NCBI GenBank assembly: GCA_963789265.1 | Contig: CAWBKB010000001.1 | Span: forward strand, 672,001 to 736,000 | Reading direction: 5' to 3' | Source of the DNA: an uncultured delta proteobacterium | GTDB taxonomy: Bacteria; Desulfobacterota; Desulfomonilia; Desulfomonilales; Desulfomonilaceae | Length of the DNA stretch: 64,000 bases | Part shown: piece after piece, positions 36,001 to 42,000 of the stretch | Position numbering within the stretch: position 1 is the first letter of the stretch | Layout of the letters: every line of letters starts with the position of its first letter | Made by a program: the position numbers

Positions 36001-39000
36001 AGGAGCATGCTGCCTACGGTTTTCCCTGCCTTTCCGGACAGAGACGAATTCGATATTTATGCGATGATGCGTCCTGCCAAAGAGGTCGGCGGGGACTTCT
36101 ACGATTTCTTCTTTTTGGATGACGACCACTTGTGTGCGGTCATAGGGGATGTATCGGGGAAGGGCGTGCCCGCGGCCCTTTTCATGTCAGTGACCAAATA
36201 CCTGATCGAGGCGGCGTTAGGCATGGGTGAAGCTCCGGATCGAGCATTGGCCAGAGTCAACCGTCACCTGGCGGATAACAACGAATCCTGCATGTTCGTG
36301 ACAATATTCATGGGCATATTGAATGTTAAAACCGGAGATTTTCTTTATGCGAACGCGGGCCACAATCCGCCCTTATTGTGGGATCGGGACCGTGAGCCGA
36401 GCTTCCTCGAGCCTCCCGGAGGGCCGGTGGTGGGCATAATGGACGATGCAGTCTTCGGCATGGACCGATTGAGTTTCAAGCCCGGAACAGTTCTACTGGC
36501 CTATACGGACGGTGTGACAGAGGCATTTAGCGCGGACGGCATCGCTTTCTCGGACAAAAGATTGGTTCTAGCTGCAACCCCGGTACGGGAAAAGTGCGTG
36601 AAAGAGATTACCGACGATCTCGTCAAAGTGATTGATTCCTTTTGCGTGGGTGCTCCTCAGGCCGACGACATAACCATCCTGGCTTTGCGTTGGGAGCGAA
36701 GAGACTTAGAGTAGCCAAAGGCGCACCGCTTCCATAATATGACGGTCAAAGCGTCCCGCGAGACTCCTGATGCGGTCACAAAGCTCTTTGGGCAAGGCAC
36801 AGCGGAAAGTGGTCAGGCCGCCATTGAAGATTTCAGGCCCATTGGCTGCAGGAATCAATTTGGTTTCGTCTATGAGGCGCAGATAGTGCCACAGAGCCAA
36901 AGCTATCTGCTCCTGGCGAGGCACACCCGATTTGTTCAGTTCTGAGTAGTCTGCCTTCCTCACGAGAACAGTGACTATTTCGAAGCTATCAGCCTTATCA
37001 ATCTTACCAGCGTTTATCAATTACCGTCCCCCAATGGCCCCTATTAAGAAATTATGAGAAATGTACTATAAATGAATTATTAATGGAGAGGGGACCTTTT
37101 GTCCAGAGAATTTGATTCTTTTCCGACTGTTTTGCGATACAACAGCCTTGGGAGCGAGGATTTGTCGTCTTTCTTCAGGGCAAGAATTCACCGCAGAGAG
37201 CGCAGAGACCGCGGAGAATTCTGGTTTCGTCGGGCGTCTATCTGATGGAGCCGACTTGTTACGGCACAGGCGCTAAAACAGCATTCATCCGTTGGTCAGC
37301 AGGCTATTGTCCCAGAGGGACATTTTGATAGTAGACCGGTGCTTTCAGCGCCGGGAACGAGCAAAAAAGAGAACCCGTGCGTCCCAGAGGGACGCCTGAA
37401 TGTAATCGTAGAAATCAGCCTTTCAAGCGTCCCTACGGGACGCAGAAGCGGTCATTATTGGTCGCTTTCCCGGCAATGAATTGCGGGGCTGCTCTCACGG
37501 AGGCCCTTTGGGGCTCATAAGGTTGCAAGAGATGCTTCGTTTTAACGCCCACGGCTTATTCTGGTCCGTGATAGTAAAGCATTTTCGGCTCGACTATTCT
37601 CGATTGTGGCTCACATGATGCTTAATAAACTATCTTCTTACTCTGCGTTCTCGGCGCACTCTGCGGTGAATCTTGATTGTGCACCGAGGATGGTTTCAAA
37701 CTTGCCGTGCTCTGCTTCCCAAATTTCCCTACGGTCTTTTCTCAGCCCTTGGCTGATATAGAACTTGATGAGAGCTTGATATCCTCCCATTCCTTTTAGC
37801 GGTGCAATTCTTTTCAGATCTTCCAGCACGTCCTCCGGAACTCTGATGGAAATGTGCTTCATTGGCCGATCTTTATGCAGAACAATCTTCTTCATAACGT
37901 TCTCTCTCCTCGGGGTAACAGGGTCGAATCCGCTGGTAGCTAATATTGGAGTTCCATCAAGGACAAAGCTCCAGTGCTGTCGAATTAACGCTAATCCCGG
38001 CGGTCACGCCACCGTCGTGACCGTCACCCCGGACTTGATCCGGGGCCCAGTAGTCCCGCATTTTACGGGATTGAAATTCACCGAGTCGCGGGACTGGATT
38101 CCGGCTCTTGCCCCGGATCGATCCGGGGCTGGCCGGAATGACGGCAACCGCACGCGGATTACCACAACAGCAAAGAGCATAAGATGTGCAGATCTCGCAG
38201 GACGCCTGAGAACACCATCGCTCGCTGCTACGCCCGCCTCAAGGAGCATTCCATGCAGTTGCACTGACGGGAGAAGTCCGCACGACGCCTAGAATGTTCT
38301 GCGATAGAATCAATCTGTTCGTCTGTGAGATCCTCATAAACTCGGGCTGCCAACGCGAGAATCTCGTCAGGTTTCTCTAACGGCTCCACGACCAGACGCA
38401 CCTTTTGTCCCTCTGCAAGCTTCAGATCGAACGGCGCAACAAGGCGAAATCCTCCGTGTTCATAGACGGCTTCGACAGTTTCAGTTGCCATGCGAATGCT
38501 CCTCTCTGCCCTGGCCCACTCTGATCTCTACTGAGGCGGCTGCCAGAAGGGTCCGGTCTTCTCGATTTCCTCAAGGATGGTCAGGACCTCATGAAAGTAT
38601 TCTCTGCTGCGGGCAAGCCAGTCGGCATCAAGACGCCTGCGAAAGAATTTCCCCGAGAAAAGCCGGAATAAGTCCTTGAGAGGGATAATTCCTTCAACAT
38701 TAGCCGAATCAAATTGAGACCAATTTCTCACATGCTCTTCCGACCGGAAGAGATTCATAGTGCTTCAGGTGTACGCCCAGTCTTCCATCCATTTCCGCAA
38801 CGGGACTGCAACATAACCGATTATTCCTTCCGGCTCAGTTTTTACAATGGTCCCATCAGACACTTCCACAACTACAGGACCGCCGCAATCTAAACACACA
38901 CTATTAATTTGGACCGTCTTCCCCGGGCACAGCCAGCAAACTGCCAGCGACTCGAATCTTCATTGACCAAACCACTTTTGCCTACCGTCAATGGTGATCC

Positions 39001-42000
39001 TATACTGAGTCGGGACATTGCTGAAGGGAGCAAAGGAAGCGATCAGACTGGTATTGGGGTAGAGCCAACAACCAGGGATCTTCAGGTCGATGAGTTCATG
39101 GAGTTTTTGTCGGCCCTCGTCCGGTGACACTCCCAAATCTTTTGCGAGGTCAGTGTAATGGGGTGCGTGACCGGTGTCCATCAACCCCTTCAAGATGATT
39201 CGGAACGTCTTGCCAAGTTGTGCTGGATCACTCATGGGGCACCTCTCGATTCACTTGATTGGCCGATGCCTTTTCTGGGCATCCTCTTATCTTAGAGGGC
39301 GCAACCTCAAACCAGCAAGTATTTCCTCATTATCTCTTCGTTTTCCCTCAATTCATCCATGCTGCCCTGAAACCGGATGACGCCATTGTCAATGAGGTAG
39401 CCGCGATCACTCAGGTACAGTGCAACTTTCTGATTCTATTCGGCCACTACATCCTACGCGACCATGCCCACGGCCAATTTGAACGCGTCGAGAACATCGT
39501 TTGTGTACGTACTTGCCGGGCGGCTATAAGTGTCAACAATACTGATTTTTATCTCCCCGGCCGCGTAGGCCCGGCCGCCGGCGATCGGCAGCCCTACGAT
39601 GGCCAAAGTTCAGACGATCAAGCTCGCGGTCTATTTCGTGACATGACCTCCATGTCTTGGCGGATTAACTCGCGGAGACTATAACAACAATGTGGGGATT
39701 GCAGAAGCGGTGGATCGTGCCCATTATGATATGGTGAGAAAAAACAGAATATGCGTGCAAAAAAAGATAAGCCGGTCAAAGCTAAGGAATCCGATTCCAA
39801 CATAAGTTTCTATCCCGCGTGGTGCAAACGGTGCGGAAATTGCGTTGCATTCTGCCCGAAGAAAGCCCTGGAGACAGACGAATGGGGTTATCCCCGCTTG
39901 GCCAGACCTGATAGCTGCATATCCTGTCATCTCTGTGAAAAGCTGTGCCCGGATTTTGCCATCACCGTGGGGGAAAAGGCTCCTTCGAGCGTTGCCAAGC
40001 GTGCATCCTCGGTCCCGTCTCCCGGAACTCACGGTTCGCCGGTAAGCGCTCATCACAGTCCCGAGCGCCTCGCACCGGCTCCGCATGAAGAGGAGGAGGC
40101 CGATGAATAAGAACAGGGGCCGCCTCCTCCAGGGAAATGAGGCCATAGCTCGGGGAGCGCTGGCCGCGGGGTGCAACTTCTACGCGGGTTACCCCATAAC
40201 GCCGTCAAGTGAAATCATGGAGCTTATGGGCCTCGAACTACCTGTACGCGGCGATGTTTTCATCCAAATGGAAGATGAGATCGCGTCGATGGGCGCATGC
40301 ATCGGAGCGAGTTTGGCCGGTCGCAAAACGATGACGGCCACGAGTGGTCCGGGATTCTCGTTGATGCAGGAAAACCTCGGTTATGCATGCATGGCGGAGA
40401 TCCCGGTGGTAGTTGTGAACGTGATGCGCTTGGGGCCTTCAACCGGTATGCCCACTAATGCGGCTCAGGGCGATCTGCAACAGGCGCGTTGGGGCACACA
40501 TGGAGACCACCCGGCTATAGTGCTCTGTCCGGCTACGGTATCCGAATGCTTCGATGTTACGGTAACCGCATTCAATCACGCGGAGCGATTCCGCACACCG
40601 GTGATACTACTCGCAGACGAAATGGTGGCGCACACTCGAGAAAAGGTTGTCCTGCCTGAAGCCGACGACATCGAAGTCATCAACCGTCGCCGTCCCACCG
40701 TGCCGCCGGAGTGGTATGTGCCGTACAAAACCGACGGGAGTCTCATTCCGCGGCTGGCGGCCCTGGGGGAGGGGTATCGCTACCATGTAACCGGCCTGAC
40801 CCACGACGAGCGGGGATTCCCAACCAGAAGACAAGACGAAGCCGCCTCATTCTACAAGCGGCTTTTCGCAAAGATCAGCAGTCAATTTGCATATCTGGAA
40901 ATGGTAAAACAGTTTGAGCTTGACGATGCCGAACTGCTGATAATTGCCTACGGATGCGTGGCAAGAGCGGCCCGTGCCGCGGTACGTCTGGGGCGGGAAA
41001 GAGGCATCAAACTCGGATTACTTCAGCTTCTCTCACTGTGGCCTTTTCCTCGTCGCGCGGTCTCCGAGGCTCTTACTGCGAAAAAAGCAGCGGTGGTGGC
41101 CGAGCTGAACTTGGGCCAAATCCGGCGGGAAGTGCTCCGGGTCAACGACGGTCGCACCCGTGTGCTTGGCCTCAACAAGGTTGACGGGACCATGATCACC
41201 CCTGAGGAAATTCTCAATCGCTTGCGAGAGATAAAATGAAAATCGTTGAGCGGGCAGCAGGATTCTAGGTCCCGCGAGACGCGGGATACGCTGAGAACGC
41301 AGAGAGGAGGAAACCGCCTGAAGATCGCGCCGGAAGCCAGAAAGATACCCAGTCAGGACAGCATGTCTCCACCGGCCTAGACTCTAACGTGCTGTGCCGA
41401 GCTGAGAGAATTGCAAAGAAAAGAGACTTCTCTGCGCTCTCCGTGATCTCCGCGGTGAACGATCATCTAAAATGAATGTCCAAGTAAGCCGAAGCGTGGT
41501 CTACGACTGGCTGCGCCATGACAAGAAATTTCCCCATGTCTGGTGTCCCGGATGCGGCCTTGGGATACTGCTGGGTTCGCTCGTTCGAGCTTTCGTGCAA
41601 AGCGGCCTGACCAAAGATGAAGTTGCTTTGGTGTCCGGCATCGGCTGCGCGGGGAGATTGCCGGTTTACGTGGATGTGGGCAGCGTCCACACGACTCACG
41701 GTCGGGCGCTCACGTTCGCTACCGGCATCAAGCTTGCCAAGCCGGAACTCACGGTCGTAACCGTAATGGGAGACGGCGATGCACTGGCCATTGGCGGCAA
41801 TCATCTTATTCACGCGGCGCGGCGCAACGTAGACATTGTCGCTATAGTGGTCAATAATCAGACTTACGGCATGACCGGCGGACAATATAGTCCTACGACT
41901 CCATTGGGCTCGAAAGCGTCCACCGCCTGGTTCGGGACCATTGAACCCTCTTTTGATATTGGTGCCCTGTGCGTTACCGCAGGGGCCGTATTCGTGGGCC

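Follow-up and report, generated by a model that had tools for sequence, protein, structure and literature searches.

A Single Gene with Two In-Frame UGA Codons

The window analyzed here is a stretch of 64,000 nucleotides from one contig of an uncultured delta proteobacterium (Desulfomonilaceae). A preliminary description had proposed that three pieces on its minus strand form one 235-codon gene with two in-frame TGA codons. Translation of 38528-39235 (minus strand) with TGA read as selenocysteine (Sec, U) yields a product of 235 residues that ends at a TAG stop and has Sec at positions 92 and 157 (U92 and U157). This bears out both the gene and the two TGA positions. With translation table 11, the same interval breaks into split open reading frames of 91 amino acids (38960-39235) and 76 amino acids (38528-38758). 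A Shine-Dalgarno-like stretch, GAGAGG, lies upstream of the start ATG at 39235. The three pieces, whether called or uncalled, are a single gene, with the following coding features.

38528..39235, minus strand: MerB-like coding sequence, 235 codons plus TAG stop; homologues in 104 distinct loci align with it end to end
38960..38962, minus strand: UGA codon 92, very probably read as Sec; TGA in 104/104 loci, Cys in relatives, column of MerB Cys96 in PDB alignments
38765..38767, minus strand: UGA codon 157, very probably read as Sec; TGA in 103/104 loci, Cys in relatives, column of MerB Cys159 in PDB alignments

Are the two codons maintained in other organisms? The 104 distinct homologous loci share 45-86% protein identity, and only one of them, L034, lacks TGA at codon 157; this locus has an in-frame TAA as well. 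Because both TGA columns are kept across such divergence (104/104 and 103/104 loci), chance or decay can be excluded. Among 401 genomes sampled from the phylum, at least two TGA codons are found in 43 of the 44 matches spanning both sites, in agreement with the earlier statement that the double-Sec form is the rule for this subfamily. In an alignment of 128 sequences, the protein segment that separates the two TGA positions is conserved, and the columns of U92 and U157 are at least 90% Cys or Sec. Relatives of approximately 155 amino acids have Cys92 and end at the second TGA, while P0031 has Cys at both sites, as confirmed by exact look-up. The Cys92/Sec157 and Cys/Cys forms are nested in the two-Sec clade, where Cys and Sec interchange.

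Two points of the preliminary description had to be revised. A scan of GTDB species genomes, said to have found 243 relatives, gave 99 confirmed relatives from 146 candidate stretches when rerun, of which the best 80 were retained. Nor is the family restricted to Desulfobacterota: judging from taxon names in database records, members are also present in Chloroflexota, Bacillota (Pelotomaculum), Nitrospirota, Acidobacteriota, Actinomycetota, and Spirochaetota.

It could be argued that the TGAs are true stops or signs of decay, which would make the locus a pseudogene or a set of three small genes, or that TGA is read here as Trp or Gly. Gene callers do split the locus, and 22 of 29 aligned database proteins have W at both sites. 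However, the sequences with W derive from short contigs of metagenomes (about 1-2 kb), and in our interpretation their genes were called with a different genetic code. Across 104 loci from several phyla, the reading frame, its length, and both TGA columns persist, and the amino acid sequence encoded between the two codons is conserved. Moreover, TGA terminates ordinary genes in the window, such as that of an oxidoreductase alpha subunit (stop 41237-41239), and apparently also some members of the two-Sec family. The genome carries complete Sec machinery (tRNA-Sec, 71.3 bits; SelB, 386 bits; SelA, 594.5 bits; SelD, 359.6 bits), and SelB scores above cut-off in all five of the other carriers tested. 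On the strength of the conserved frame and TGAs, the TGA stops elsewhere, and the Sec machinery, we reject the pseudogene and alternative-code readings; this whole group of explanations is extremely improbable.

Conserved Hairpins Downstream of Each UGA

Each UGA is followed by a small SECIS-like hairpin within the coding sequence.

38932..38948, minus strand: SECIS-like hairpin 1, stem of 7 bp (two of them G-U) and GUU loop, 11 nt past UGA92, in codons 96-101
38735..38752, minus strand: SECIS-like hairpin 2, fully paired stem of 7 bp and GGUC loop, 12 nt past UGA157, in codons 162-167 (L-F-R-S-E-E)

The hairpin sequences given previously stand as written, but the spacing of 14-15 nt does not, as the hairpins begin 11 and 12 nt beyond the final TGA base; the longer spacing holds only when counting starts at the T of TGA. 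In the rule known from E. coli fdhF, the spacing is 11 nt and the apical loop contains G and U.

The support for the hairpins consists of comparative data, as their single-sequence folding energy is not distinctive. For the 50-nt stretches starting at each UGA, the folding free energy is unremarkable for hairpin 1 (z +1.14) and not unusual for hairpin 2 (z -1.5). Across the relatives, 93.5% of cells are paired in hairpin 1, compared with 21-55% when the partner is slid; its closing pair is GC in 95 sequences and CG in seven, and its loop is GGUCW in most relatives. In hairpin 2, 98.6% of cells are paired, with both-sided changes at three pairs (11 cells), a result matched by none of 500 shuffles. 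Compensatory changes are thus present in the stems of both hairpins. Normalized synonymous entropy falls to 0-0.43 at codons 96-100 (hairpin 1) and 0-0.5 at codons 162-167 (hairpin 2), compared with about 0.75-1.0 elsewhere, and the codon use of hairpin 2 is almost fixed (TTC in 104/104, CGG in 99/100, TCG in 101/103). The hairpin RNA also encodes conserved peptides, and its conservation is partly at the protein level. An Rfam scan of the locus returned no family match, only hits at chance level (E 4.8-9.7).

Taken together, the TGA conservation, the Cys residues in relatives, the constrained hairpins, and the presence of tRNA-Sec, SelA, SelB, and SelD make it very likely that both UGAs are decoded as Sec. 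An mRNA with two UGAs, each trailed at 11-12 nt by a small hairpin with G and U in its loop, would be translated with SelB and Sec-tRNA(Sec) using each hairpin to insert Sec. The predicted product is a 235-residue two-Sec protein with the MerB fold.

Domain Architecture and Relationship to MerB

The protein can be divided into three regions.

39071..39235, minus strand: N-terminal three-helix, winged-helix-like domain, residues about 1-55; model helices 4-21, 27-34, and 38-49
38660..39025, minus strand: MerB core domain (Pfam PF03243), residues 71-192, containing U92, E95, CxxC 114/117, and U157
38531..38659, minus strand: C-terminal helical extension, residues 193-235, with a conserved G-P-F-W end; model helices 196-199 and 206-223

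The protein is a member of the MerB superfamily, a conclusion well supported by sequence and by fold. Its match to Pfam MerB (76.2 bits, cut-off 27, residues 71-192) and its best PDB sequence match, 5c17_A, were both reproduced from the earlier work. An AlphaFold model built from the 128-sequence alignment (pLDDT 94.9, pTM 0.89) replaces a previous low-confidence fold (pLDDT 49). When this model was compared with the PDB using Foldseek, all 11 matches with E ≤ 0.001 were MerB (best 2.5e-10; TM 0.51-0.66). The family profile finds MerB2 at 6.5e-27 and MerB at 2.9e-13 among PDB chains, with MerB and MerB2 together ranging from E 6.5e-27 to 1e-11. The fold of the N-terminal domain weakly resembles DNA-binding domains of the LexA and MntR types (profile versus the LexA DNA-binding domain, E 5e-4), and the C-terminal extension is common to the full-length Cys relatives.

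In the profile alignment, positions 92, E95, and 157 fall on MerB C96, D99, and C159. The PDB alignments likewise match both Sec residues to the two Cys and agree, as previously claimed, that Sec occupies both catalytic-Cys columns and Glu the Asp99 column. Thus, compared with MerB and MerB2 (EC 4.99.1.2; PDB 3f0o, 1s6l, 5c17), the fold is shared and the active-site columns align at about 20% identity, while Sec/Sec/Glu stands in place of the Cys/Cys/Asp of MerB (Ser in MerB2). The two-Sec protein also differs in its helical tail and in an additional CxxC, both of whose cysteines (C114 and C117) reach at least 90% conservation in the 128-sequence alignment. This motif has no full MerB counterpart; C114 alone aligns with a MerB Cys.

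The two-Sec protein likewise lacks the merR/T/P/A context of MerB. The window neighbors are unrelated, and no mer genes lie beside the gene. Clustering of open reading frames within 4 kb of 104 loci revealed no conserved neighbor, the top cluster being present in 10 of 104. Because no neighbor family occurs in more than 10 of these loci, no operon partner can be named, and because the neighbors are not conserved, gene context gives mercury no support. A profile search of the genome for MerA found none at cut-off (best 387.5 bits versus 454). MerB proper can be rejected as an identity for the protein, given NCBIfam scores of 32.8 bits versus a cut-off of 200 (NF033555) and 37.5 versus 193 (NF009710), the Glu at Asp99, and the missing mer context.

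A conserved CxxC in a two-Sec protein invites the idea of an oxidoreductase built on a MerB scaffold, in which a diselenide or selenenyl-sulfide would exchange with C114/C117, particularly as the abstract of PMC9312934 describes the majority of prokaryotic selenoproteins as redox enzymes. Yet both Sec positions are exactly the MerB metal ligands, Foldseek detects no thioredoxin-like fold, and no redox partner is conserved nearby in the 104 loci, so that we regard this idea as quite improbable.

Relationship to SaoL, Cys Relatives, and a Paralogue

A MerB-like selenoprotein has been described before. According to the passages on it in Haft & Gwadz (bioRxiv 10.1101/2022.07.06.499078), SaoL, the “selenocysteine-assisted organometallic lyase,” has a single Sec in a CU dipeptide (Cys99, Asp102, Sec162) and lies in a nine-gene SAO locus. 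On that description, SaoL and the two-Sec protein have much in common: both are MerB-superfamily selenoproteins of anaerobes with Sec at the MerB Cys159 column, both have database entries truncated at UGA, and both lie outside mer resistance operons. They differ in the columns of Cys96 and Asp99, where SaoL has retained Cys and Asp and the two-Sec protein has U92 and E95. The motif at the Cys159 column is CU in SaoL and [YH][TA]-U-S in the two-Sec family (Y-T-U-S here), and the nine-gene neighborhood of SaoL contrasts with the absence of conserved neighbors across the 104 loci. SaoL itself (NF040728) is rejected as an assignment, since the protein scores 44.9 bits against a cut-off of 140 and has neither the CU motif nor, to judge from the neighbors in the 104 loci, the SAO context. 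This score and the two MerB model scores equal those first reported. In the term-matched passages and table rows of prokaryotic selenoprotein reviews, SaoL, with one Sec, is the sole MerB-like family and no two-Sec form appears, which accords with the earlier claim that the double-Sec form is not among the listed families. Because SaoL is already published, the two-Sec protein is a new subfamily rather than a new kind.

The uncharacterized Cys/Cys “alkylmercury lyase family” proteins (about 225-255 amino acids; among them P0102, P0104, P0105, and P0135) have equal length and domain order and a tail ending in G-x-F-W, and the nearest of them also have Glu95. They branch just outside, and partly inside, the two-Sec clade. 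These full-length relatives have no UGA or hairpins and are 21-38% identical to the two-Sec protein.

The same genome encodes a second two-Sec MerB-like paralogue, P0098 (G000:C1:1734019-1734774), with UGAs at the same two active-site columns and, after the second UGA, a 7-bp hairpin with a GGUC loop. Two TGAs are present in all 12 matches to P0098 found in 201 genomes. P0098 is only 16% identical to the product of the 235-codon gene; it keeps the Asp (U-A-V-D), is extended at the N terminus, and does not have the long C-terminal tail.

A Possible Role in Organometal Turnover

What might the two-Sec protein do? By homology, the selenolates of U92 and U157 together with Glu95 would form a site matching Cys96, Cys159, and Asp99 of MerB. 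Such a site could bind the metal of an organometal and protonate the carbon, cleaving the carbon-metal bond. The protein would then serve anaerobes as a selenol-based organometal(loid) lyase operating outside mer operons, with methylmercury and other organomercurials as the first substrate candidates. The labels “lyase” and “catalytic” are thus taken over from homologues. That the protein turns over a carbon-metal(loid) bond is a tentative proposal, to which we give slightly less than even credence. The explanation as a whole, namely one gene, two Sec, and a MerB-fold selenol-based organometal(loid) lyase, we consider reasonably probable. The Glu in place of Asp99, the curated MerB and SaoL scores far below their cut-offs, and the lack of MerA at cut-off speak against a lyase.

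A soft-metal binder would use the same residues differently. Hg binds far more strongly to Se than to S, so a pair of selenolates could hold on to Hg(II) and impede turnover, disfavoring product release. Together with the nearly invariant CxxC 114/117 they would make a very thiophilic site, and neither MerA nor a mer context is there to receive Hg(II). The protein might then be a genuine two-Sec trap or chaperone of very high affinity for soft metals such as Hg(II), acting without turnover. However, a pure binder has no need of Glu95, which occupies the MerB proton-donor position in 103 of 104 loci (Gln in the other); a costly two-Sec protein seems wasteful for stoichiometric trapping; and Cys and Sec forms swap within the clade. 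We therefore think such a binder unlikely.

The genome of the window also encodes HgcA, with a match of 468 bits. Of the 39 carriers of the two-Sec gene among the 401 sampled genomes, 19 have HgcA above cut-off, as do 100 of the 362 non-carriers, a count confounded by relatedness, and 18 of the 39 carriers have no HgcA match, either above cut-off or as a contig-end fragment. We treat the enrichment as a lead only; a link to methylmercury is possible and weakly supported. It is tempting to speculate that strictly anaerobic mercury methylators use the two-Sec protein as their lyase for carbon-mercury or other carbon-metal(loid) bonds, a proposal we hold to be doubtful. If true, it would represent a selenol-based demethylase acting at trace substrate without a mer operon, and would explain part of the unaccounted methylmercury degradation in anoxic sediments.

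Significance

With this family, the prokaryotic selenoproteome gains a widespread subfamily, one that is systematically mis-annotated, either as pieces of about 91, 63, and 77 amino acids or with Trp at the UGAs. It would be among the few instances in which a single active site holds two Sec, here in place of both metal ligands of a known enzyme. The natural series of Sec and Cys at each site (U/U, C/U, C/C) may serve as a probe of the benefit of selenium in carbon-metal chemistry. The gene is also a concrete candidate for organometal turnover in anaerobes, many of which carry the mercury-methylation gene hgcA, and a cultured carrier, named in its database record as Pelotomaculum propionicicum strain C1, makes the question testable.

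A single gene read through two TGA codons

With TGA read as selenocysteine (Sec, U), the minus-strand frame at 38528-39235 of the window translates into 235 residues, with U92 and U157, and ends at a TAG stop, as the preliminary description had proposed. The two TGA codons lie at 38960-38962 and 38765-38767. Under the standard code the gene is split into a 91 amino acid ORF (38960-39235) and a 76 amino acid ORF (38528-38758), and the middle piece is left uncalled. We reproduced the scores reported earlier for the read-through protein: Pfam MerB (PF03243) matches residues 71-192 with 76.2 bits (cut-off 27), and the NCBIfam scores are 44.9 against 140 for SaoL (NF040728), and 37.5 against 193 and 32.8 against 200 for MerB. 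The top match in a PDB sequence search was again MerB2 (5c17_A, 4.7e-7), and the MerB alignments place Cys96 under U92, Asp99 under E95 and Cys159 under U157. Only two PF03243 matches were found in a search of this genome, each with two TGAs. That the split ORFs are one gene is strongly supported.

Conservation of the TGA codons

Are the two TGA codons conserved? We sampled 401 genomes of the phylum, and a six-frame search detected the protein in 50 of them. There are 44 matches of at least 39% identity that span both sites, from 39 genomes, and 43 of these contain at least two TGAs; the sole exception, locus L034 of genome G325, has one TGA, carries a TAA in frame and appears broken. Among weaker matches (25-34% identity) the number of TGAs is zero or one. 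From the GTDB species genomes, 146 candidate stretches gave 99 confirmed relatives, the best 80 of which were kept. Pooling both sets and removing 6 duplicates left 104 distinct loci (45-86% protein identity). Codon 92 is TGA in all 104 and codon 157 in 103, with GTA in L034; Glu95 is kept in 103. In 26 alignment rows a further TGA falls in one of three adjacent columns at or just beyond the aligned C-terminus, and we read it as the true stop. Ordinary genes of the window also end in TGA, e.g., that for an oxidoreductase alpha subunit (41237-41239); TGA is therefore not a sense codon in general in this organism.

The protein collection holds the family in four forms, one of them being fragments. 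Nominally full-length proteins (among P0002-P0046), from contigs of approximately 1-2 kb, have Trp at both Sec sites (22 of the 29 database proteins aligned), and we interpret them as products of gene calling under a different genetic code, with TGA as Trp. Proteins of approximately 155 amino acids (P0047, P0051, P0057 and P0064) have Cys at position 92 and end where the second TGA lies. One protein, P0031 (239 amino acids), has Cys at both sites, and an exact look-up located its Cys-bearing sequence on a 210-kb contig. An exhaustive representative search returned 740 matches (E <= 0.001), most of them pieces (residues 1-91, 93-155, 160-234 or 1-156), together with full-length relatives that are Cys/Cys and share 21-38% identity; when 36 sequences were aligned, the residue-92 column was at least 90% Cys. 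In a FastTree phylogeny of 142 rows, a quick method in which long branches were flagged, the two-Sec sequences form a single group (115 rows, support 99). Nested within this group are the Cys92 forms and P0031 (Cys/Cys), and Sec and Cys have therefore been exchanged several times.

Some N-terminal fragments in the collection, such as P0065 and P0070 (approximately 148 amino acids), were predicted with a 58-residue upstream extension bearing a twin-arginine-like motif (R-R-K-F-L-K), which is either real or an over-extended start.

Hairpins and selenocysteine machinery

Each UGA is followed by a hairpin:

38932-38948, minus strand: hairpin 1, from 11 nt after UGA92; 7-bp stem with two G-U pairs, GUU loop
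38735-38752, minus strand: hairpin 2, from 12 nt after UGA157; perfect 7-bp stem, GGUC loop

In most relatives the stem of hairpin 1 is 6 bp long and the loop is GGUCW. Among the 104 sequences, 93.5% of its stem cells are paired, against 21-55% with a slid partner, and its closing pair is G-C in 95 and C-G in 7. For hairpin 2, 98.6% of stem cells are paired in the same 104 sequences, and both sides have changed in three pairs (11 cells), which none of 500 shuffles reached; some of these two-sided changes swap the encoded amino acids yet keep the pairing. The strongest hairpin signal is the entropy at synonymous sites. Normalised codon entropy, computed at each codon among sequences sharing the residue, is approximately 0.75-1.0 over most of the gene and drops to 0-0.43 at codons 96-100 (TCG 85/85, CTG 88/103, TGC 60/60) and to 0-0.5 at codons 162-167 (CTC 87/89, TTC 104/104, CGG 99/100, TCG 101/103, GAA 100/104). 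Weighing against these signals, each 50-nt hairpin stretch, taken alone, has an unremarkable folding energy (z +1.14 for hairpin 1, -1.5 for hairpin 2), and an Rfam scan of the locus gave no matching family. In E. coli fdhF, a small upper stem-loop, whose loop contains G and U, lies approximately 11 nt from the UGA; both hairpins, we presume, resemble this arrangement.

The genome encodes tRNA-Sec (71.3 bits), SelB (386.3 bits), SelA (594.5 bits) and SelD (359.6 bits; contig C7, 193442-194362, minus strand). The SelD match contains one in-frame TGA, which makes the selenophosphate synthetase of this genome a selenoprotein too. SelB is above cut-off in all five other carriers tested, among them a genome of Pelotomaculum, a genus with a carrier in culture (Pelotomaculum propionicicum). 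Insertion of Sec at both sites of the MerB-like protein is strongly supported.

Predicted fold and active site

An AlphaFold model built from 128 rows (the query, 99 read-through loci, 27 Cys relatives and a paralogue) has a mean pLDDT of 94.9 and a pTM of 0.89, and replaces the low-confidence model (pLDDT 49) of the preliminary description. Searched with Foldseek against the PDB, it gives 11 matches at E <= 0.001, all MerB or MerB2 (best E 2.5e-10, TM 0.51-0.66); the next matches are winged-helix domains only, on the N-terminus. The family profile matches MerB2 (6.5e-27) and MerB (2.9e-13), pairs the same active-site residues, and places C114 on MerB Cys117. The predicted structure strongly supports a MerB fold, and the profile alignments likewise strongly support equivalence of the active-site columns.

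By analogy with Cys96 and Cys159 of MerB, the two selenolates would be the ligands of the metal(loid) in an organometal, and Glu95 would deliver the proton as Asp99 does in MerB. Two rival roles may be set beside such a lyase. C114 and C117 form a CxxC motif, at least 90% conserved in the 128-row alignment and lacking in MerB, which might take part in a redox role. The protein might also trap metal without turnover. The affinity of selenolates for Hg is much higher, which cuts both ways: it could allow activity at trace substrate levels, or block product release.

For the lyase reading, HgcA offers a substrate lead. The genome has a full-length HgcA match (contig C4, 258989-259975, minus strand; 468 bits, cut-off 275), and the organism is therefore a likely mercury methylator. 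HgcA is above cut-off in 119 of the 401 sampled genomes: 19 of the 39 carriers, with two more carriers having contig-end fragments, and 100 of the 362 non-carriers. HgcA is enriched among carriers without being a rule, in counts that ignore shared ancestry.

The same genome has a second MerB-like paralogue of 252 amino acids outside the window (locus L018, 1171-1929, plus strand; contig C1, 1734019-1734774). It shares only 16% identity with the protein described here, and likewise has an in-frame TGA at each of the two active-site columns, in the motifs Y-A-A-U-A-V-D (Asp kept) and S-F-U-K-E-S. The second TGA is followed by a 7-bp hairpin with a GGUC loop. All 12 matches in 201 genomes of the phylum have two TGAs.

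Gene context and relation to MerB and SaoL

The surroundings of the gene are as follows:

39751-42936, plus strand: 2-oxoacid:ferredoxin oxidoreductase operon, upstream and divergent; four genes (ferredoxin, alpha, beta and gamma subunits)
39307-39420, minus strand: ABC ATPase C-terminus-like stretch, upstream; approximately 36 codons, with stop codons just upstream of the stretch
38228-38491, minus strand: AF2212-like small gene, directly downstream
37638-37895, minus strand: CopG-antitoxin-like small gene, downstream

The ABC ATPase-like stretch, which we take to be the C-terminus of a branched-chain-type transporter ATPase, is probably a gene remnant. No conserved neighbour was found across the 104 loci, the commonest neighbouring family occurring in 10, and no MerA match above cut-off occurs anywhere in the genome.

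Assignment to MerB proper was rejected on NCBIfam scores below the curated cut-offs. SaoL, as described in the preprint, retains Cys99 and Asp102, has a single Sec, which lies within a CU dipeptide, and is the marker of a nine-gene locus (Haft & Gwadz preprint). It was rejected as well: besides the score (44.9, cut-off 140), our protein has Sec at both ligand positions rather than one, Glu rather than Asp as the acid, no CU dipeptide and no conserved neighbours. Our literature searches, which covered the preprint, found SaoL as the only MerB-like selenoprotein. In passages of two reviews it is entered with one Sec (PMC9312934; PMC13188914), and the latter counts 119 selenoprotein families or subfamilies, few of them with two or three Sec. 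We conclude that the gene represents a real and conserved subfamily within the MerB superfamily, one that has two selenocysteines and is mis-annotated.
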